Shown here: positions 3,761 through 20,000 of the stretch, in pieces
Numbering within the stretch: position 1 is the stretch's first letter
Layout of the letters: every line of letters starts with the position of its first letter
The notes under the pieces: model-generated
Told to the model about the DNA's origin: nothing
The model's database searches: none
The model's input: only the letters and a program-made list of their open reading frames with translations
Virus record (IMG/VR): IMGVR_UViG_3300026136_000184
Location: 52,616 to 72,615 of that record
Length of the DNA stretch: 20,000 bases
Strand: one strand, 5' to 3'
From: an uncultured virus (IMG/VR IMGVR_UViG_3300026136_000184)
Taxonomy: Duplodnaviria > Heunggongvirae > Uroviricota > Caudoviricetes
Position numbers and translations under genes: made by a program

Positions 3761-4546
3761 ATGAGTAAACGCAAAACAGGCGCATTAAGGAAAAAACATG
3801 AACCATACAGACACAGGGAAACACATCACACGGCAGAGGACACGTTCTACATGAACTCCTCAAAGACCATCGACTTTAGCAAGTATAGTAAAAAGCAGAA
3901 GTCACGCAGACCAATCGAATTAGTACCCCAGAGTATAAATCAGGAAAAATATATTATAGCATTAAATGACCCTGAAACAGATATCGTTATGGCTAGTGGC
4001 CCCGCTGGAACAGGTAAAACCTACTTAGCAATGTTGGCGGCGATGAGAGCATTAAGATCAGGTCAATGCGATAAAATATTATTAACACGCCCTGCTGTTG
4101 CTGTAGATGACGAAAAACATGGTTTTCTTCCAGGCGACTTAAACTCAAAAATGGAACCATGGGTAAGACCCTTATTCGATGTGGTGAGAGAATATTACTC
4201 ACAGAATGAAATCGAATATATGTTAAAGGAACAAATCATAGAAATCACACCTTTAGCATTTTGCCGAGGCAGAAACTTCAAGCATTCATGGATTATATTA
4301 GATGAGGCCCAAAACGCAACACCGTCACAAATAAAAATGTTAATGACAAGGATTGCTGAGGGTAGCAAAATCGTAATCAATGGTGACGTTGAACAGACTG
4401 ACCGACTAACACATAATAACGGGCTCCTTGATTTAAAAGATAGAATAGATCAACATAAAGTACCTGGCATGACTGCTTGTACTTTTGATCACAAAGACAT
4501 ACGGAGACACAAGATTATTGAACACGTACTAAAGATGTATCAATAA
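3761..4546 (+). CDS. phoH: PhoH-family ATPase
   Basis: Walker A GPAGTGKT, LTRPAV, GFLPGDLNSKMEPW, PLAFCRGRNF, IILDEAQN, MLMTRI, INGDVEQTD and DIRRH match PhoH family motifs. Basic N-terminal extension of ~50 aa. Confidence 0.95.
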   Translation: MSKRKTGALRKKHEPYRHRETHHTAEDTFYMNSSKTIDFSKYSKKQKSRRPIELVPQSINQEKYIIALNDPETDIVMASGPAGTGKTYLAMLAAMRALRSGQCDKILLTRPAVAVDDEKHGFLPGDLNSKMEPWVRPLFDVVREYYSQNEIEYMLKEQIIEITPLAFCRGRNFKHSWIILDEAQNATPSQIKMLMTRIAEGSKIVINGDVEQTDRLTHNNGLLDLKDRIDQHKVPGMTACTFDHKDIRRHKIIEHVLKMYQ

Positions 4547-4567
4547 TTTCATAGGTCCATATAAACA

Positions 4568-4591
4568 GAAAGGGCCGTTAACGGCCCTTTC
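4568..4591. terminator. Bidirectional intrinsic terminator between convergent phoH and the methyltransferase
   Basis: Perfect 24-bp palindrome GAAAGGGCCGTTAACGGCCCTTTC in the gap between two converging stop codons; short T-run on both strands. Confidence 0.8.
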
Positions 4592-4610
4592 ACTCTGAAT
4601 GTATTTGCCC

Positions 4611-5396
4611 CTACAAGGTCTTTAATTTTCTATTCAGAACACTTTTAGCATATGCTGGATATACAAGATAAGGGTAAGTAAGTTGTTTTTTAATTTCCCA
4701 TTGATTTTGTTTTTTAGCAAAACTAGAATAATACTCATCATTAAATCCTGCTTCAAAATAAGTATACTTTAATTTCTCATCAAAGTCAAATTTTAAATCT
4801 AATAAATCAAATATATTACTATTAAAAATTAGTTTTTTATCTACCATTGTATAATCACTGTTATATAAATAGTCATTTGGTTTGATAGATTTATTTGATA
4901 ATTGATAATATTCTTTTATGTTTTCATCTAATTTGCTATAATCAACATCTTCAACCAATTGTTGTTGTACATGAGTTAAATTGCATGATGTGAGTTTTAA
5001 ATTGTTAGGATATACATTATGTATTTGTTGCTTTTCACAATTGTTAAGAAAGAATAATAGACCTTCACTTAAGGCACAATGACCAAATATCTCATGTATA
5101 TAAATATCACCTTTTGGTAAGTTATCGTTAAAGATATCTAAGTTTAATACTTCGATGTTGTCATTGTTTCTAAATTTGCTTTTAAGGCTATAATAATGTT
5201 GTTGATTAATTTCTAAACTATAAACCTTTTTGGCACCGTATTTAATACTTAACCAAGTAAAAAATCCAGAACCTGACCCACAATCAACAATAATTTTGTT
5301 TTTGGCATGTCGTTTGATATAGTCGATGTATGCATTAGACCTGTTATAATCTAATAGCATTTCCCAAACATACATGTTTGGTACGGATGCATTCAT
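4611..5396 (-). CDS. Class I SAM-dependent methyltransferase, PRMT-like
   Basis: Motif I IVDCGSGSG, post-I GAKKVYSLE, upstream MLLDYNRSNAY (MLxDxxRxxxY) and a double-E-like loop DIYIHEIFGHCALSEG. The methyltransferase call is strong; the subfamily is inferred. Confidence 0.85.
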   Translation of the reverse strand: MNASVPNMYVWEMLLDYNRSNAYIDYIKRHAKNKIIVDCGSGSGFFTWLSIKYGAKKVYSLEINQQHYYSLKSKFRNNDNIEVLNLDIFNDNLPKGDIYIHEIFGHCALSEGLLFFLNNCEKQQIHNVYPNNLKLTSCNLTHVQQQLVEDVDYSKLDENIKEYYQLSNKSIKPNDYLYNSDYTMVDKKLIFNSNIFDLLDLKFDFDEKLKYTYFEAGFNDEYYSSFAKKQNQWEIKKQLTYPYLVYPAYAKSVLNRKLKTL

Positions 5397-5603
5397 TTAC
5401 TGTTTGTTTATTCTTCTTAAACTTCCCATCATATACGCGGCGTAAATGAATAAAGGTCCGAAGATTAAAATTTCTTCAGTTGTTTCTGAAAAATCAAAAT
5501 ATGAAATAGACCAGATGTACGAAAACATGATTATACCTATCCATGCAAACGTGTATAATCCACTACATAAATTTAAAAAGTGTTCTTTAATATTTTCTAT
5601 CAT
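5397..5603 (-). CDS. Small membrane protein (two predicted TM helices)
   Basis: Hydrophobic stretches LYTFAWIGIIMFSYIWSISYF and ILIFGPLFIYAAYMMG. ATGA overlap with the upstream gene; stop abuts the next start. Confidence 0.7.
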   Translation of the reverse strand: MIENIKEHFLNLCSGLYTFAWIGIIMFSYIWSISYFDFSETTEEILIFGPLFIYAAYMMGSLRRINKQ

Positions 5604-5878
5604 TTTTTATTCCTTTTATCTTTCTTTTCGATCGGCCCTTCTTTTTCAAGTTGCTCAATCAATTTAGGGTAAATTCTCTTGTAATAAGAACTCATTTTCT
5701 CAAATGTTGTATCGTGGTTCTTGCCTTCAATCACACATTTTTGTACAGACATATCAGAGTAATCCATGATTACATTTTTTGTAGTCATATCTGATTTCTT
5801 TAACTTACGTGATGTTTGAATTAATTCGTCAATTTGACCGTTTGGCTTACGAATGTATTGTACTAGTAAATATCTCAT
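5600..5878 (-). CDS. Hypothetical phage protein (92 aa, basic)
   Basis: Full ORF with TATAAATA 6 nt upstream of the ATG. Confidence 0.75.
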   Translation of the reverse strand: MRYLLVQYIRKPNGQIDELIQTSRKLKKSDMTTKNVIMDYSDMSVQKCVIEGKNHDTTFEKMSSYYKRIYPKLIEQLEKEGPIEKKDKRNKK

Positions 5879-5884
5879 ATCATT

Positions 5885-5892
5885 TATTTATA
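5885..5892 (-). promoter_or_regulatory. T4-late-like promoter TATAAATA
   Basis: Exact T4 late consensus within a 17-bp intergenic gap. Confidence 0.65.
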
Positions 5893-5895
5893 TGG

Positions 5896-6819
5896 TTAAG
5901 AAGTCAACTCAACTAAAGTTGCGGCGAGTGATATCTCAGGGATACCTACTAACGGCAGATTTGCTAGACCATTTCTGATAACAATGATATTTGCATCACG
6001 TTCTTCATTACTTGCCCCAAACAAGTCTAAGTTATCATACATCCAACGATATGTATCTTCGATTCTAGTAGGATACAATGCGATATATTGCATCAATTGT
6101 TGTCTTGCTTCGATTAAATTACCGCTTTTAAACAAGTTTGTTGCTTCGACTAAAAGTTCATCTTCACTCTGGCCTTCACTCTGAGGGGCCCTCAGAGCGC
6201 CAGAACCGCTGTTTACTTGCAATTGATTAAGACACTTACGTAAGTCAGGATATGTTGCACGAACAAATGTATCTAAAACATCTAATTCAAAGTCAACATT
6301 CTCTGTAACTAACACAGTTGCCGCTCTTGCTGTAAACTCTGTCATATCAGGCTTAGCAATATGATACTGATGACAACGAGACTTGAGTGCAGGAATGATC
6401 TTGTGAGCATAGTTACATGTCAAAATGTATCTAACAGTCTCATGGTATGCTTCCATATCATTTCTTAAGGCTGCCTGCGAGGGCTGAGTTAAATAATCTG
6501 CCTCGTCTAACAACACCACCTTGAACTTGCCGAACGGCATAGTCTGCACAAAGCCATTAATCTTTTCACGTAACATGTCAATACCATTCTCACGTGATGC
6601 ATTAATAGTCAATACGTCATATTCTTCGATACCTAATTCGTTGATCAGCACTTTTGCAAGTGTAGTTTTACCTGTACCGGGGTCACCAGACATCAATAGA
6701 TGAGGGAAACTATCCTCTGCTATCCAGTTCTGAACTTGTTCTTTTTGAATTGGATCTGTAAACACATAATCATCTACAGATAACGGACGATACTTTTCTA
6801 CCCACAACTGATTCTTCAT
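5896..6819 (-). CDS. Sliding-clamp loader AAA+ subunit (RFC small subunit / T4 gp44-like)
   Basis: LWVEKYRP, Walker A GDPGTGKT, INASRENGID, Walker B VVLLDEAD, QAALRNDME, ILTCNY, SRC motif (ALKSRC) and PDLRKCLNQLQ; GAGGT RBS. Confidence 0.95.
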   Translation of the reverse strand: MKNQLWVEKYRPLSVDDYVFTDPIQKEQVQNWIAEDSFPHLLMSGDPGTGKTTLAKVLINELGIEEYDVLTINASRENGIDMLREKINGFVQTMPFGKFKVVLLDEADYLTQPSQAALRNDMEAYHETVRYILTCNYAHKIIPALKSRCHQYHIAKPDMTEFTARAATVLVTENVDFELDVLDTFVRATYPDLRKCLNQLQVNSGSGALRAPQSEGQSEDELLVEATNLFKSGNLIEARQQLMQYIALYPTRIEDTYRWMYDNLDLFGASNEERDANIIVIRNGLANLPLVGIPEISLAATLVELTS

Positions 6820-6851
6820 TGATACCTCATTGAGTTTAATTTAATACTGTT

Positions 6852-6880
6852 ATTATATAGGATTAACGAGTAGATGTCAA
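6852..6880 (-). promoter_or_regulatory. Consensus sigma70 promoter of the clamp loader gene
   Basis: Perfect TTGACA-N17-TATAAT on the minus strand, immediately downstream of a terminator. Confidence 0.9.
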
Positions 6881-6889
6881 TCATTAATT

Positions 6890-6917
6890 AAAGAAAAAGG
6901 GCAACAATGTGCCCTTT
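6890..6917 (-). terminator. Intrinsic terminator
   Basis: Minus strand AAAGGGCA-CATTGT-TGCCCTTT followed by TTCTTT, directly after the stop at 6921. Confidence 0.8.
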
Positions 6918-6920
6918 ATT

Positions 6921-7301
6921 TTAGTCTTCCCAACCGTCATCGTTTTCGTCATATACACCGTCGTTGTTTGTGTCACAATAACGTTGCCATGCTACCATAT
7001 TAAATGTCAGACCTTCTGACCATGGAACATATGAGTCACACCATGCATGTGAGCCGACTGCCATGTCGTCATCAGTTCCGTTATCTACTTCAACATAATC
7101 ACGCCGAGTAGTTTCCGGAAACTCTTTGAACTGATAAGTTCTACCGCTATTAAAAGTGCGTTGTTGATACAACTTACCTTTAGTAACGTGAATCATTTCT
7201 CCTTCTGTAAGGGTCAATGTAGAACCATCGTCATAGTTGATAACTGTCTGGGCTGTAGCACCGAATGAAACTAGTGCTAAAATGAAAATAAAAAATTTCA
7301 T
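6921..7301 (-). CDS. Secreted protein with a C-terminal EF-hand-like Ca-binding loop (126 aa)
   Basis: Start re-assigned to the ATG at 7301 (GGAGA RBS at 7306-7310; the longer ORF overlaps groES). Sec signal MKFFIFILALVSFGATA; two Cys; loop DTNNDGVYDEND. Confidence 0.75.
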   Translation of the reverse strand: MKFFIFILALVSFGATAQTVINYDDGSTLTLTEGEMIHVTKGKLYQQRTFNSGRTYQFKEFPETTRRDYVEVDNGTDDDMAVGSHAWCDSYVPWSEGLTFNMVAWQRYCDTNNDGVYDENDDGWED

Positions 7302-8509: not shown

Positions 8510-9016
8510 CTATTTTAAAAATTCTTCAACGTCTAAACCGTAGTATATACTATTTATACGGTGAATTCCTATCAAAAATAAAACAAAACTTGATACACTA
8601 GAGCCTCTTCCAACTCCCCATACAATATTATGTTCTCTCATCAAATCAACAAGATATTTCATATATTGTAAAAGCAGAAATTGTCCTCGTTTTTGATACA
8701 ATAACAATTCTTTTCCTACTCGTTGAAGTTCTTCTTCATGTTTACATTGTTCCAGTAACCATGCGGCAATATCAAGTTCTCTGTATTTCTGAGGCATATG
8801 CCATTTACTTCGCATTTCTTCATCAAAATCTGCGACTGAAACTTGTGCAAGTGTATGTTCTAATAACTCTGGGACATTTTCTATTTCAAGTTCTGGATCG
8901 ATTTCTATTTTACCGTCAGTAAGAACGTGCTTTAACTTCTGATTCGGATTCTTCATGTAGATATCTACTAAATCTCGTTCAGTATAGATAGGACGTCCGT
9001 AGTAATCGTTAATCAT
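8510..9016 (-). CDS. dnaE: Stand-alone fragment of DNA polymerase III alpha subunit (family C)
   Basis: ELQRVGKELLLY...YMKYLVDLMREHNIVWGVGRGSSVSSFVLFLIGIHRINSIYYGLDVEEFLK matches the DnaE segment RLxxELxxI...GPGRGSxxGSLVAYxLxITxxDPLxxDLxFERFL. Only 168 aa. Confidence 0.88.
   Translation of the reverse strand: MINDYYGRPIYTERDLVDIYMKNPNQKLKHVLTDGKIEIDPELEIENVPELLEHTLAQVSVADFDEEMRSKWHMPQKYRELDIAAWLLEQCKHEEELQRVGKELLLYQKRGQFLLLQYMKYLVDLMREHNIVWGVGRGSSVSSFVLFLIGIHRINSIYYGLDVEEFLK
8551..8558 (-). promoter_or_regulatory. T4-late-like promoter TATAAATA inside the 3' end of the dnaE fragment
   Basis: TATAAATAGTA 49 nt upstream of the ATG at 8501, with the same AGTA flank as the 11375 site. Confidence 0.5.
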
Positions 9017-14505: not shown

Positions 14506-17500
14506 TTATGCATATGTTGCGCCGACAGTATACCATTGTGACGAACTATGTGCAACAAATTGAATTTGTCCTAAAGGACTTATTGACATTGCTCCATTAG
14601 TTCCGTTACCGTCAATCGCATCATTAGTTGCTGGATACACTTTTAATGTATCTGTTGCATCTAAGTTTTTAATGTATATGCATAAACCTGGAGTCGCATT
14701 CATCAATCTAACACCGTTGTCATTGCTAGGTGTTGTTACTGAGAATATATCTGCGCCACTTAGTGCCGCGGCGCTTCCTTGAGTTGTGCCACTTGCAGTG
14801 ACTGTTGTTACGTCTTTAATAATGTGAGTCTGGTTAGTTATATTACCAGATACTGTTAAACTTGTTAGTGTGCCTACACTAGTAATATTAGGTTGTGTTG
14901 CTCCTGTAATATCTAATGCTAATGCCGCACTCCCTGCTGATGTTGCGTATGTTGAGTTTGCAACAATTCCTGAAATGTTGGCTGCCACTACATTAGAGAG
15001 ACCGCCACCATCACCTGTAAATAACCCTGTGTTTGCTGTAAATGATTGTGCTGTTACGATGCCGTTAACACCTAATACTGACAGTGTACCTACTGAAGTA
15101 ATGTTTGGTTGTGCTGAAGTAGTAACTGTTCCTGATGTTGTTGCTGAAGTGGCTGATGTTGCTAATGCTACTGTACCACTTACATTTGCACCTGCTACTG
15201 AATTTGCTACTTGTGCGAAATCTACTTCGCCTGTAACTTGTTGTCCATCTATTGCTGTTAAGTTAGCGCCATCGCCTGATACGTATGTAAAGACACCACC
15301 AGTGCCCGATACATTTCCTGCAGACACATTACCTGTAACAGATAATGACGATAACGTTCCAACACTAGTGATGTTAGATTGAGCGGCTCCCGATACAGTA
15401 GTAGCCACTGTTGCCGTTGATACTGCTCCGGATACATTAGAACCTGCTACTGAGTTTGCAGTCCCCGCAAAGTCTACTTCGCCAGATACGTTTGCTCCGG
15501 CTACTGAATTTGCTACTTGTGCAAAAGGAACTTCTCCGCTTACATTTGCACCTGCTACTGCATTTGCTGTTGTTGCAGTAGTTGCTAATGTTGCTAAAGG
15601 AACTTCACTTACGTTTGCTCCTGTAATATTTGTTAATCCTGCACCATTTCCTATAAATGATCCACTACCACTAGCAATTGTAATATTACCTGCGTTAGTA
15701 ATAAGATCACTAGTAGTGTTAAGATTACCACTTAAGATTAATCCTGTTAATGTTCCTACTGATGTAATGTTTGGTTGTGCGTTAGTTGTTAGACTTCCTG
15801 CTACTATTGGAGCACTAAGTCCGCTACCTGCAATAATATGACCAGGAGCATTTAAGTTGCCTGATGTTTTATTGAATGTGAATCCTGCGTTACCAGCATA
15901 TGTAGTGCCACCGTCGTTAAAGATAATTTCTGTATCTGAACCTTGTGCTGGTACTAAAGTTGCAGTGTCCCATGTTAAAGTACCAGAGCCATCTGTCATT
16001 AAGAATGCACCATTGACACCACCTGTAACTGTTACGTTACTTACTGGTCCTAAGTTAGATGTGCTGTTAAAGTCTATATTGTTATCAAAACCACCTGATA
16101 CAGACATTGACCCTGTTACTGCTACTTCTGTACCTGAATTGTTAACTTGTAATACGTTTGCTGTTCCACCAATTGTAACTCTGAATGGTCCGTTAGTATC
16201 AAGTCTTGCTTCACTTGTACCGTTTTCGATATAAGATCCTGTTGATACAGATATATTTGATAAGCCGCCACCATCACCAGTAAATACACCGGTTGTTGTC
16301 ACATTGCCACCACTAATATTGCCTGACACATCTAATGAACTTAATGTACCTACAGTTGTAATATTTGATTGTACAGCATCAACTACAGTATTTGCTGTAC
16401 TTGCATGTGTTGCGTTTGCTACAGTACCTGATACATTTGCGCCATCGACTGCGTTAGCAGTTGCGGCGAATGCAACTTCACCTGTAACATTTGCGCCTGC
16501 AATTGAATTAGCAATTGCGGCAAATGCAACCTCTCCTGATACGTTAGATCCTGCTACTGCATTAGAAACTGCCGCAAAACCTACTTCGCCAGTTACGTTA
16601 GCACCTGCGACTGAATTTGCTGAGTCTGCTGATGTTGCATGTGTAGCATTTGCTACGACACCTGATACATTGCTTCCTGCAACACTATTCGCAGTACTTG
16701 CAAATGCAACTTCACCAGTTACGTTTGCACCTGCGACTGAATTGGCTACTTGTGCAAAAGCAACTTCTCCACTTACATTCGCTCCAGCAACTGAATTTGC
16801 TACTGCGGCAAATGCTACTTCGCCTGATATATTTCCTCCAGCAACACTATTGGCTGTTGCCGCAAATGCAACTTCACCAGAGACATTTGCTCCGTCTACT
16901 GCGTTAGCAGTTGTTGCAAATGAGACTGCACCAGTAACATTTGATCCTGCTACTGAATTTGCTACTGCTGAGAATCCTACTTCTCCGCTTACATTTGCGC
17001 CGGCTACTGCATTTGCTGTTGCCGCGAATGCAACTTCTCCTGTTACATTTCCACCAACGATGTTTGATAATCCGCCACCATCGCCAGTAAATAAACCTGT
17101 ATTTGCAGTAAATGCTGGTGCTGTTATTGTTGATTGAACATCTAGTGTTGTTAAAGTTCCTACTGATGTAATGTTTGGTTGTGCATTAGTATATACTGTT
17201 CCTGAAACTAATGCATTTCCTACTTGACCTGTTATATTAGATCCTACAAGTGCTGATAAGCCAGCACCATTACCACTGACATTAGATGCCGCTACAGCAC
17301 CTGTTAGGGTTATGTTGTTTGCATCTATGTTACCGTTTCCAGATGATGTATTTGCTAATACATATCCAAAATCACCTGACAAATTACCTATGACTGTATT
17401 ACCTTGAACATTACCTGACACTACTACATCAGTAATATTTGCTATCGAATTAGGTAAATCAATGTATAATGTTTGAGTAGAATCTGTGATAGTCGCAGTA

Positions 17501-17775
17501 CCTGGGCCTGTACCCGGTGAACGACCTACTGATAAAGTTGTTGAAGAAAACTGAACACATGCAATGTTTGCACCTAATACAACGTTACCTACTGGGGAAC
17601 CATTAACTAAATATACTCCGGGTCCTGCAGTTTTGTTGACTGATACTACTGCTTGGTCACCTAACCCCGCAAATACTTCTGTAAAATTTAACTGAACTTT
17701 TTCAAACGCCGATCGTATTGCATCTGCATCTGGATCGTCAGGGAATGCTCCGAAGTCAATATTTCTTTGTGCCAT
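14506..17775 (-). CDS. Long repetitive fibre protein (tail-fibre-like, 1089 aa)
   Basis: N-terminal anchor IDFGAFPDDPDADAIRSAFEKVQLNFTEVF, typical of T4-like fibre/baseplate N-termini. A/G/N/T/V-rich body with 18-aa repeats and six QxNITxVGTL motifs; distinct C-terminal domain. Confidence 0.82.
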   Translation of the reverse strand: MAQRNIDFGAFPDDPDADAIRSAFEKVQLNFTEVFAGLGDQAVVSVNKTAGPGVYLVNGSPVGNVVLGANIACVQFSSTTLSVGRSPGTGPGTATITDSTQTLYIDLPNSIANITDVVVSGNVQGNTVIGNLSGDFGYVLANTSSGNGNIDANNITLTGAVAASNVSGNGAGLSALVGSNITGQVGNALVSGTVYTNAQPNITSVGTLTTLDVQSTITAPAFTANTGLFTGDGGGLSNIVGGNVTGEVAFAATANAVAGANVSGEVGFSAVANSVAGSNVTGAVSFATTANAVDGANVSGEVAFAATANSVAGGNISGEVAFAAVANSVAGANVSGEVAFAQVANSVAGANVTGEVAFASTANSVAGSNVSGVVANATHATSADSANSVAGANVTGEVGFAAVSNAVAGSNVSGEVAFAAIANSIAGANVTGEVAFAATANAVDGANVSGTVANATHASTANTVVDAVQSNITTVGTLSSLDVSGNISGGNVTTTGVFTGDGGGLSNISVSTGSYIENGTSEARLDTNGPFRVTIGGTANVLQVNNSGTEVAVTGSMSVSGGFDNNIDFNSTSNLGPVSNVTVTGGVNGAFLMTDGSGTLTWDTATLVPAQGSDTEIIFNDGGTTYAGNAGFTFNKTSGNLNAPGHIIAGSGLSAPIVAGSLTTNAQPNITSVGTLTGLILSGNLNTTSDLITNAGNITIASGSGSFIGNGAGLTNITGANVSEVPLATLATTATTANAVAGANVSGEVPFAQVANSVAGANVSGEVDFAGTANSVAGSNVSGAVSTATVATTVSGAAQSNITSVGTLSSLSVTGNVSAGNVSGTGGVFTYVSGDGANLTAIDGQQVTGEVDFAQVANSVAGANVSGTVALATSATSATTSGTVTTSAQPNITSVGTLSVLGVNGIVTAQSFTANTGLFTGDGGGLSNVVAANISGIVANSTYATSAGSAALALDITGATQPNITSVGTLTSLTVSGNITNQTHIIKDVTTVTASGTTQGSAAALSGADIFSVTTPSNDNGVRLMNATPGLCIYIKNLDATDTLKVYPATNDAIDGNGTNGAMSISPLGQIQFVAHSSSQWYTVGATYA
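16385..17040 (-). repeat. Coding tandem repeat, 54-bp / 18-aa unit GEVAFAxxANSVAGANV[ST], ~11 copies
   Basis: Read directly from the translation; synonymous positions vary. Further copies at ~15170-15235 and ~15420-15570. Confidence 0.9.
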
Positions 17776-17882: not shown

Positions 17883-20000
17883 TTATTTTAGACTATCTAA
17901 TTTGTTTAAAATAGTTGCAAATCCGCTTGATGAAAGTACAGAACCTTCTTTAACAACGTCAGCACCATTGTAGCCCATTCTGTCTTCTTGACCAGCAATG
18001 ACTGGGATAGTTGTTTGTCCTGTTGACTTCTGTTTGTTAATTCCACCTGAGATAACTTTAGTCATAAAGTCAATGTCTTGTTCAAATGATGTTTCAGTAC
18101 CGTTCTTGCCTGCATCATTAGCCCATTCGTCAACTTTTTCTTTTTCATCTTTAGAATCATCTTTATCTTTAGAATCATCTTTTTTATCAGGATAGATATC
18201 CTTGAGATTTTTAGCAGTAATTTTTTTGCCTGAATCATCTTTTAGTTTATTAAACCATTTTTCTTCATCTTCTGCTACTTTGAATTCTCTTTGATCATCA
18301 GTTTGCATTTCAGTGATTTCTTCGTTCTCACCATCGTTTATAGAGTCCTTAGGGGCATCCTCTGCGCCTTCTTTAGTTAAAAGTCTCTCATCATCATGTT
18401 GTGATAATGGCTGAGTAGGTTCTTCTGAAGTTTCTGCACCTACTTCTGCTAATAAGTCTAAAGTTCTAAGATTTTCTTCTAAAGAAACATGTCTGTCTTC
18501 TTTATCTCTCTTACCGAACTTACCATATGAATCATCTCTGCGATCTTTCATACTTTGTTTCTTATCAGACTCTTTACCTTTACGCATACCTAATGACTCA
18601 TCTTCTTCGTCATCATAGCCTTGCTTTTCGTCTAACTGAGCAAGTTCGTCTAACTGAGATAAAGTTTCTTCTAAAGATTTTTCTCTATGTTCTTCATCTC
18701 TCTTACCGAACTTACCATATCTTTCATCTCTACGGTCTTTCATTGACTGCTTCTTGTCAGACTCTTTACCGTCTTTCATGCCTAATGACTCATCTTCTTT
18801 GTCATCATAGCCTTGACCTTCTTCCATATGGTGCTCATCTTTCCAGTCATCGTATTCTAAATCTTTAACGATGTCTTCACCATCTCTTCCTGGGTGCTTA
18901 CGACCGTCGTACTTTGCGTGTCGTGCAACTTCTTTACCTGCACGTTCTGCATGATCGTCTCTTTCAGCATCAGATTCTTCGTCAATGCCTTTTTTAGCAA
19001 CTGTAGATGCGTCCCAATCATACTTGTCGTATATTCCTGCATCTTTTTCTTGTTCTTCTAATGAAACATCTCTGTGTTCTTCGTCACGTTTACCGAACTT
19101 ACCGTAAGAGTCGTCTCTACGATCTTTCATTGATTGTTTTTTGTCAGACTCTTTGCCTGTACGCATGCCTAATGACTCGTCTTCTTCGTCATCGTAGCCT
19201 TGCTTTTCTTCTAAATGTCCACCGTGTCTATGACCGAAGTCTCCACGTGAATCATCTCTGCGATCAGCATAAGATTGTTTCTTGCTAGATTCTTTGCCGT
19301 CTTTCATGCCGAGTTGTTCGTCTTCTCTATCGTTATAGCCTTGATCTTCGTATGCTTTGTCTCCACAGCCTTCTTCCATGCTATGTCCGCCACCGCATTC
19401 GTCACATGATTCTTCGTCTACATCGACTACAACACCTGGTGCTTCTACTTCGTCTTCGTAATCACCGTCTACGTCTACAATACCCATTAACTTGAGCATG
19501 TCATCGTGTGAACTCATTGGTTGCTCACTTTGATCTGGGCTACCATAGAATGATACGTCTGCAACTTCACCGGGTGCATCTAAAACTTCTGCATCACCGT
19601 AGTTACCTAAGCCTACGTCTTTAACAAACTTGATTAACTTATCTGCTTCTGCATCAGTTGCATTAACACTTACTCTGTCTGGCTGATTCATTTCGCCTTG
19701 AGTAATAGACATTGTATAGCCTTCGTCAAGTTGTTCTTTATTTGCTTCTTCTCTACTTTCTACTAAGTGTGAGTTTAATTCTTTTTCTAAAGACTCAAAA
19801 GTCCACTCATCTTCTTCTAATGAAGCGGCTTCTGATGTTTTTGTAAATGTTTTGTCTCCTACTGAGAACTTTTCGCCTTTGTCTGCTTTTGCTAGAGCAC
19901 CTGTAAATGCATTACCTTCTTCAACATCGTCTTCATCAATGCCTTTACGTGCTACAGTTTGTGCGTCCCAGTCATATTTGTCATATGCACCGTCGTCATC
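17883..20000 (-). CDS. Large acidic, highly charged repeat protein (5'-truncated), possible head core/internal protein
   Basis: The frame is open from 19712 to the window end (DDDGAYDKYDWDAQTVARKGIDEDDVEEGNAFTGALAKADKGEKFSVGDKTFTK...LDEGYT-MSITQ), so the true start is beyond 20000. D/E/K-rich with repeated modules. Confidence 0.8.
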   Translation of the reverse strand, partial: DDDGAYDKYDWDAQTVARKGIDEDDVEEGNAFTGALAKADKGEKFSVGDKTFTKTSEAASLEEDEWTFESLEKELNSHLVESREEANKEQLDEGYTMSITQGEMNQPDRVSVNATDAEADKLIKFVKDVGLGNYGDAEVLDAPGEVADVSFYGSPDQSEQPMSSHDDMLKLMGIVDVDGDYEDEVEAPGVVVDVDEESCDECGGGHSMEEGCGDKAYEDQGYNDREDEQLGMKDGKESSKKQSYADRRDDSRGDFGHRHGGHLEEKQGYDDEEDESLGMRTGKESDKKQSMKDRRDDSYGKFGKRDEEHRDVSLEEQEKDAGIYDKYDWDASTVAKKGIDEESDAERDDHAERAGKEVARHAKYDGRKHPGRDGEDIVKDLEYDDWKDEHHMEEGQGYDDKEDESLGMKDGKESDKKQSMKDRRDERYGKFGKRDEEHREKSLEETLSQLDELAQLDEKQGYDDEEDESLGMRKGKESDKKQSMKDRRDDSYGKFGKRDKEDRHVSLEENLRTLDLLAEVGAETSEEPTQPLSQHDDERLLTKEGAEDAPKDSINDGENEEITEMQTDDQREFKVAEDEEKWFNKLKDDSGKKITAKNLKDIYPDKKDDSKDKDDSKDEKEKVDEWANDAGKNGTETSFEQDIDFMTKVISGGINKQKSTGQTTIPVIAGQEDRMGYNGADVVKEGSVLSSSGFATILNKLDSLK
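18474..19343 (-). repeat. Four dispersed ~150-bp coding repeats (QGYDDxEDESLGMxxGKESDKKQSMKDRRDDSYGKFGKRD...SLEE)
   Basis: Copies at about 19206-19343, 19053-19202, 18666-18815 and 18474-18623. Confidence 0.9.

Follow-up and report, generated by a model that had tools for sequence, protein, structure and literature searches.

Does a bacteriophage encode a protein-arginine methyltransferase (PRMT), and if so, what would the enzyme methylate? The question arises from a stretch of 20,000 nucleotides of an uncultured tailed phage, here called the window, in which a sequence-only reading had recognized the motif set of PRMTs. PRMT-fold arginine methylation is treated as a eukaryotic system. The gene is an intact open reading frame (ORF) of 261 aa, from ATG through stop, on the minus strand at 4611-5396. 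Since contigs from two other studies bridged the whole gene and its flanks (X4, 4499-5843; X12, 4537-5661), it is not an assembly artefact. At least part of the gene was present in 20 of the 24 runs listed, mostly marine, and three runs may be the source of the DNA. Four runs examined for contig joints that skip the gene showed none, and RNA runs holding it were not found among the runs listed.

The virus record containing the window is 72.6 kb long and 21% complete; an overlapping record of 128 kb is 37% complete, suggesting a full genome of about 350 kb. A neighbouring structural gene had matches in 88 cultured phage records at about 29% identity, the best being Xanthomonas XbC2, PBECO4 and 121Q-like jumbo phages, and the carrier is a marine jumbo phage. 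The neighbours encode a ClpA-like ATPase, DnaJ, two virion proteins, PhoH, a clamp loader, GroES and a DNA polymerase III alpha fragment. The immediate surroundings of the gene are the following.

3761..4546, plus strand: PhoH, the convergent downstream neighbour (PF02562, E 3e-67)
4568..4591, minus strand: terminator-like hairpin just past the methyltransferase stop, common to the convergent phoH (a similar hairpin in 9 of 9 syntenic carriers listed)
4611..5396, minus strand: compact methyltransferase of 261 aa with a predicted PRMT fold
5397..5603, minus strand: optional hydrophobic ORF of 68 aa (absent from most carriers, present in one non-carrier)
5600..5878, minus strand: conserved ORF of 92 aa, the upstream neighbour (no family match; present with or without the methyltransferase)
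5885..5892, minus strand: TATAAATA, late-promoter-like element two genes upstream of the methyltransferase, at 14 bp from the 92-aa ORF that follows it (conserved in 11 of the 14 syntenic loci)
5896..6819, minus strand: clamp-loader subunit, first gene of the predicted unit (phrog_168, E 1e-71)
6852..6880, minus strand: promoter preceding the clamp-loader gene, with a perfect sigma-70 consensus (12/12; counterparts in 9 of 14 loci)

Other parts of the genome deserve a brief description. The 92-aa ORF showed a dS of 1.1-2.4 against relatives with a much closer clamp loader and a dN/dS of 0.04-0.08; it is a conserved protein at a recombination-prone site. The DNA polymerase III alpha fragment (window 8510-9016) is a stand-alone protein of 168 aa that is kept in relatives, and the phage also has a family B polymerase. 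Two long repeat proteins lie further along the window: one of 1089 aa (14506-17775) with many ANSVAGANVSGEV-like repeats and no Pfam or PHROG match, probably a tail fibre, and a highly charged one of 609 aa (17883-19712) made of repeat units of about 45 aa (DDSYGKFGKRD-like) with no family match. Elsewhere on the phage's own contig (L174:7015-18745), genes for FolE, a QueD-like PTPS protein, a radical-SAM protein, a phosphoribosyltransferase, an IMPDH/GMP reductase and glycosyltransferases form a region of probable deazaguanine or sugar DNA modification.

The protein family libraries said little about the methyltransferase. Pfam and NCBIfam recognized only a generic SAM-binding region, neither PRMT_C nor PRMT5 of Pfam matched, and PHROGs had no family covering the protein. 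A Pfam match to RrnaAD (28.9 bits, cut-off 24, residues 32-102) and source labels such as 'predicted RNA methylase' would fit an ordinary enzyme of the PrmA, RsmA/Erm or FkbM type; such family matches, however, cover the SAM-binding part only, those to KsgA and Erm end near residue 106, and the NCBIfam scores fell below their cut-offs (KsgA 18.5 bits against 171, Erm 37 against 212, PrmA TIGR00406 14.5 against 183, FkbM 18.5 against 37.7). When PDB sequences were searched with the protein, the genuine matches were PRMTs; matches to PPR proteins were dismissed as artefacts of summed repeats. A profile built from 24 close phage homologues alone gave 61 PDB matches, and all 60 listed were PRMTs, with a best E of 4e-13 and alignments spanning residues about 13-145. 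Judged on these alignments, the likeness to PRMTs exceeds chance. With a broader profile of 112 sequences the alignment reached the THW loop (E 1e-45), an extension partly bridged by 12 rows of the profile that themselves have the PRMT_C domain.

The predicted structure carried the comparison further. The AlphaFold model of the methyltransferase (pLDDT 94.3, pTM 0.91) was compared with 48,161 chains, and the top 15 were all PRMTs, with Z of 10.7-16.3 and 183-213 residues aligned at 3.1-3.9 Å. The PRMT chains compared were PRMT2 (9qca/5fub), PRMT3 (2fyt), PRMT10 (3r0q), Trypanosoma brucei PRMT7 (5eku/4m38), PRMT6, PRMT9, CARM1 and PRMT5; in the top 14 structures (Z 13.4-16.3) PRMT2, 3, 10, 7, 6, 9 and CARM1 were tied within 1. 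The best methyltransferase outside the PRMTs reached Z 9.1, and the other methyltransferases listed aligned over at most 167 residues; PRMT2 scored Z 16.3 over 211 residues, whereas PrmA reached 9.0 over 132 and ErmE 8.2 over 112. All matches listed by Foldseek were likewise PRMTs, at modest TM values of 0.43-0.61. To most PRMTs the whole model aligned over 205-213 residues, reaching residue 251-254. The structural comparison that the sequence-only reading had proposed thus found its best matches among PRMTs and not in PrmA, FkbM or nucleic-acid methyltransferases, so that the reading survived it, with a barrel that is yet a remnant. An identity as PrmA, RsmA/Erm or FkbM is largely refuted by the fold, and we consider it exceedingly unlikely.

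The extent of that remnant was apparent in the model. After a Rossmann domain (residues about 8-125), a beta-sandwich in reduced form is predicted. This C-terminal half has some four long strands, a helical arm inserted at what would be the place of the PRMT dimerisation arm, and a helix at its end. By DSSP of the model the insert contains a helix at residues 158-166 and is flanked by strands 132-147 and 178-194. Past Trp233 the chain runs for 28 residues, against 51 in PRMT3, so the protein-binding barrel would be largely gone; longer relatives have extra strands there. In the model the last barrel strands of PRMTs are missing and a helix takes their place. Folded alone, the C-terminal half gave a pLDDT of 85.5. 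With this half as query, the sequence search returned no PRMT (one profile aligned only xHW, E 0.55), Foldseek found nothing at E <= 0.001 (PRMT rows at TM 0.20-0.27) and VIA found no significant match (best Z 4.0, PRMT9 Z 3.0). A homodimer prediction with SAH scored 0.00 and was counted neither for nor against.

The seven motifs quoted in the earlier reading are all real and stand in the order given there, at residues 12, 36, 54, 97, 128, 211 and 224. Conservation was assessed in 100 distinct sequences of at least 200 aa, drawn from 138 matches in loci L001-L061 and L089-L168. The elements of the protein, with counts in this set, are as follows.

5340..5363, minus strand: N-terminal helix E12-M-L-L-D16-x-x-R19; D16 (98/100) and R19 (93/100) align with EMLxDxxR of PRMT3
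5265..5291, minus strand: SAM-binding motif I, residues 36-44 (G40 99/100, G42 98/100, G44 100/100)
5211..5225, minus strand: post-I motif V58-Y-S-L-E62 (E or D at 62 in 100/100)
5064..5093, minus strand: double-E loop E102-x8-E111 (each Glu 99/100), aligned to E138/E147 of PRMT3 (2fyt chain numbering)
5007..5009, minus strand: P130, the proline that closes motif III where the two domains meet (100/100)
4866..4955, minus strand: helical insert at residues about 148-177, flanked by two long strands (DSSP of the model; arm position of PRMTs suggested by alignment)
4698..4706, minus strand: N231-Q232-W233, the equivalent of the THW loop, aligned with THW

Motif II (xDII) appears as G96-D-I-Y-I, with D97 in 98/100, and the third position of post-I is Ser where PRMTs have Gly or Ala. 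The claim that the double-E loop keeps the E-x8-E spacing of PRMTs was borne out by HMMER alignments, in which E102 and E111 match E138 and E147 of PRMT3 chain 2fyt. Of motif III (LK/xxGxxxP) the final Pro130 alone is kept; the KxxG form occurs in a sister group and not in the window protein. Trp was found at position 233 in 97/100 sequences of the MAFFT alignment, in which this Trp is uncertain for 19 longer sequences. Position 232 varies among the 100 relatives (His 45, Asn 19, Ser 16, Gly 7, Asp 4, Gln 3, other 6), and because it is His in 45 the family keeps a true xHW loop. PRMT7 and PRMT5 also do without the His of the THW loop. The type I motif YFxxY was not found among the 11 residues preceding EML.

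In their accessible text, the reviews PMC12925635 and PMC12153873 set out six motifs together with a barrel and an arm as the mark of a PRMT, and describe substrate binding by the two Glu and the THW His; the same portions have the two glutamates anchor the substrate arginine (PMC12153873) and make YFxxY part of the type I definition (PMC12925635), and a three-part core definition appears in that of PMC13137591. The phage protein has motifs I, post-I, II and the double-E loop and parts of motif III and the THW loop, and lacks YFxxY; on this tally we describe it as PRMT-like in action and PRMT-derived, without assigning it to a type. It shares with eukaryotic PRMTs the Rossmann fold, motif I, the post-I acid, the motif II Asp and the E-x8-E loop, and further the junction proline, a putative Trp loop and a predicted helical insert at the arm position. 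It differs in length (261 aa against 310-350, at 15-23% identity), in having NQW for THW and in the loss of the LKxxG part of motif III, and it is phage-encoded. The earlier claim of a PRMT-fold enzyme therefore needs qualification: the SAM motifs, the conserved double-E loop and the PRMT top matches uphold it, and the reduced barrel, the absent YFxxY and the Gln in place of the THW His do not. On alignments and model together, the window protein would be a real, reduced, phage-specific PRMT variant, one that appears to derive from the PRMT family and would work like its members.

Other proteins of this kind have been described in part. PRMTs are predicted in Legionella pneumophila Paris (PMC10117894, a review, accessible text); such predicted bacterial PRMTs, including MAG proteins labelled PrmA, are prokaryotic PRMT-like proteins as the phage protein is, but those in our tree have a longer C-terminal barrel with THW and lie on the opposite side of the midpoint root. 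Two viral proteins of BFVD have the same compact fold, D6PIP9 (TM 0.68 over 247 columns) and A0A6J5L7A5 (TM 0.58), the latter from an uncultured Caudovirales phage; they are annotated as AdoMet methyltransferase at most, with no PRMT description. In the literature searched (titles and the beginnings of abstracts, subscription papers lying mostly outside reach) no report of a phage-encoded PRMT was found, and the main text of two jumbo-phage surveys (PMC7824862, PMC7162821), whose supplements may list more, makes no mention of PRMT or protein methylation as far as accessible.

The sequence-only reading had taken the low GC of the gene as a sign of an acquired cassette. Its counts (13/60, 10/60 and 26/60) were exact on recount, and the gene is indeed the most AT-rich of the 65 ORFs of at least 100 aa in the 72.6-kb contig (GC 26.3% against 36.3 ± 2.8%). 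GC3, however, is ordinary (0.21 against 0.26 ± 0.05 across the contig). The drop falls on codon positions 1-2, whose GC of 0.29 is the contig's lowest, and goes with the contig's highest FYMINK content (43%, mean 30%), so that the low GC is mostly a matter of amino-acid composition. No close relative was found in GTDB genomes, which gave five weak N-terminal-only matches, and the cassette argument finds no support in these results. Recent import from a cell was rejected on the same GTDB matches and the ordinary GC3. Cultured phages had no match for the methyltransferase or for P0046, and P0123 gave partial PrmA matches only; together with the weak GTDB matches this points to an old, mobile phage gene and not a fresh import.

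The gene is under purifying selection, with dN/dS of 0.17-0.29 in 8 of 8 pairs with relatives, and it is optional and mobile among phages. Of 11 loci found through the upstream 92-aa gene, five had the methyltransferase at the site and six did not, three of these six being near-identical; no copy was found elsewhere in five non-carrier records, which are only 4-25% complete. Against locus L002 the methyltransferase had a dS of 0.76 and the clamp loader one of 0.16, a difference pointing to exchange of alleles between phages.

The gene belongs to a wide family, with 427 matches at E <= 0.001 among the 1.8 billion representatives searched. Overlapping viral scans confirmed 14, 162 (80 kept), 23 and 182 (80 kept) loci; 7 of the 10 Atlas clusters listed are 95-100% viral. 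By sequence, the family extends over several uncultured large-phage lineages. Close relatives occupy at least four neighbourhoods. In the distant loci (80 kept of 162), a weakly matched small terminase gene stood directly upstream in 43, 41 of which also had the large terminase directly downstream; nrdA/nrdB were neighbours in 7-8 of the 80 and a UvsW-like helicase was near in 25. Three loci lie among tail genes (L013, L058 and L061). Two jumbo phage records carry paralogues, three in G015 (C1:64058-64570, 225202-225918 and 226718-227143, one of them short, 143 aa) and two in G019 (C1:21395-22947), as expected if copies serve different targets. Acyl carrier protein genes were near 10 of the 80 loci, within a T4-like neck/terminase cluster (L138:2139-2354), and the family matches included PRMT5-like domains inside NRPS adenylation modules (P0096, P0105, P0130, P0139, P0150, P0174, P0264).

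Seven clusters of 580-597 aa (P0257-P0263; L095:3972-5741) have the methyltransferase domain fused to an N-terminal domain, and the fusion at L095 lies between nrdA and nrdB of T4-like phages. The added domain matches phrog_2954, labelled ferrochelatase; its HxD...H pattern we take to be that of a probable 2OG-Fe(II) oxygenase, and the fusion would possibly join the methylase to a hydroxylase or demethylase. No PDB relative of the partner domain was found. One fusion cluster was tagged by its source with K11436, presumably PRMT3; the family has thus already been reached by automatic annotation.

A FastTree tree of 162 tips was built after 253 of 284 sequences passed coverage and were thinned at 62% identity. 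One of the two sides of the midpoint root (66 tips, support 0.96) holds all 28 phage-locus tips, except the PRMT_C-bearing rows. A second viral group of about 290-345 aa (L177-L185, the P0222 group) lay on the opposite side; in it, Gln often takes the place of the second Glu (ETVGPGLFDQG), and no clear THW is seen. The tree, weakened by long branches and AT-biased composition, suggests at least two phage lineages of PRMT-like genes. The A5 group (about 320 aa) had no full-length viral match.

As to function, the most credible activity is SAM-dependent methylation of an arginine guanidino nitrogen in a protein, which fold and motifs make probable. By analogy with PRMT chemistry, E102 and E111 would grip the guanidinium and orient it towards the SAM methyl group, and the loop of Trp233 is predicted to close the pocket. 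Our guess for the product is mono-methyl-arginine, because YFxxY is missing and Gln replaces the THW His.

An enzyme of this shape could also act on a small molecule. The fold of SznE is presumably related to that of PRMTs. In the streptozotocin pathway SznE/StzE, described in the accessible text as a bacterial enzyme using SAM to methylate arginine at its guanidino group (PMC11705231), supplies N-omega-methyl-L-arginine (PMC11705231, PMC12637814), and the phage enzyme might similarly methylate free or carrier-bound arginine, or another small guanidino compound, in a phage modification pathway. The reduced barrel would suit a small substrate, which counts against a protein target; the NRPS-embedded domains, the seven clusters with their putative oxygenase partner and the acyl carrier protein genes point the same way. 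SznE/StzE, however, acts on the free amino acid within a biosynthetic cluster, whereas no conserved cluster of that kind surrounds the phage gene, which in the window stands among replication and chaperone genes, and we regard a small substrate as improbable but as a serious rival all the same.

Parts of the deazaguanine route would be encoded on the phage contig, namely FolE, a QueD-like PTPS protein and a radical-SAM protein. An amidine would resemble guanidine, and the enzyme might thus methylate an amidine or amino group of a modified DNA base such as a 7-deazaguanine derivative. The methyltransferase gene lies 45 kb from these genes, though; QueD occurred in 2 of 8 carrier records and in 0 of 3 T4-like carriers (43-71% complete), all records being fragments; and no nucleic-acid methyltransferase was among the top folds. 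A modified base is very improbable as the substrate.

Returning to arginine in a protein, the transcription signals bear on whose protein it would be. The element TATAAATA matches what we take to be the T4-type late promoter consensus, and 18 of 19 minus-strand ATAAATA sites in the contig lie <=200 bp from a downstream start, many of them before structural genes. From this context, the methyltransferase would be transcribed late from TATAAATA; earlier read-through from the clamp-loader promoter is possible, and between that promoter and the methyltransferase no strong terminator was seen, only one weak hairpin (5458-5479). Within 4400-7000 the promoter count of 17 was not above chance overall (14.8), and from this search we used only the perfect sigma-70 site and its conservation.

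We place the action late because most syntenic loci (11 of 14) have TATAAATA upstream, because small and large terminase genes directly flank the gene in 41 of 80 distant loci, and because the loci L013, L058 and L061 lie among tail genes. The target may accordingly be sought, tentatively and at somewhat less than an even chance, among the phage's own late proteins. A host protein (of translation, transcription, the nucleoid or defence) modified by the same chemistry during takeover is possible but rather unlikely: it would fit the sigma-70 promoter ahead of the clamp loader, the members between nrdA and nrdB or near UvsW, and the optional carriage and allele swapping seen against L002, which resemble a conflict gene, whereas the late-type promoter directly ahead of the short unit and the many loci between terminase genes argue against it. 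Counted against a late phage protein as the target of arginine methylation were also that no neighbour is shared across contexts, that the nrdA/nrdB and UvsW sites are not late genes, the perfect sigma-70 promoter upstream, the PRMT-like domains in NRPS modules and the viral lineage with Gln for the second Glu.

The sequence-only reading had named DnaJ as a possible substrate. Its RPRGRRG stretch is present at residues 92-98, but it is not kept in other carriers: among 26 DnaJ rows it occurred only in the three copies of the phage's own contig and in 0 of 18 other carrier rows. RG dipeptides are equally found in non-carriers, the 70-residue linker of DnaJ having no RG in 6 of the 18 other carrier rows and RG in 3 of 5 non-carrier rows. 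DnaJ was therefore rejected.

Taking the family as a whole, we give about equal weight to either side of a broader proposal: that minimal protein arginine methyltransferases entered large marine and freshwater phages on several occasions and radiated there, that these enzymes would mark virion or host proteins with methyl-arginine, and that their THW position would be varied (His, Asn, Ser, Gln) for different products. If true, bacteriophages would deploy a eukaryote-style protein modification and offer a natural test of the minimal PRMT barrel. Activity on proteins would make the family a new post-translational tool in phage biology, common in uncultured large aquatic phages, and a source of small natural PRMTs with a cut-down barrel and a varied THW loop for studies of product specificity; if the substrate were free arginine or a modified base, the gene would mark an unknown phage modification pathway. 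Either way, genes of the family are currently mislabelled as RNA or L11 methylases.

Two minor observations came from the same searches. In related marine phages, a glycoside hydrolase family 6 (cellulase-like) gene (L008:4513-5367) lies beside genes for peptide deformylase, a 2OG oxygenase and the methyltransferase. An archaeal cluster of 297 aa ranked eighth by features in the Atlas and is recorded as a lead only, with a view to archaeal COG4076.
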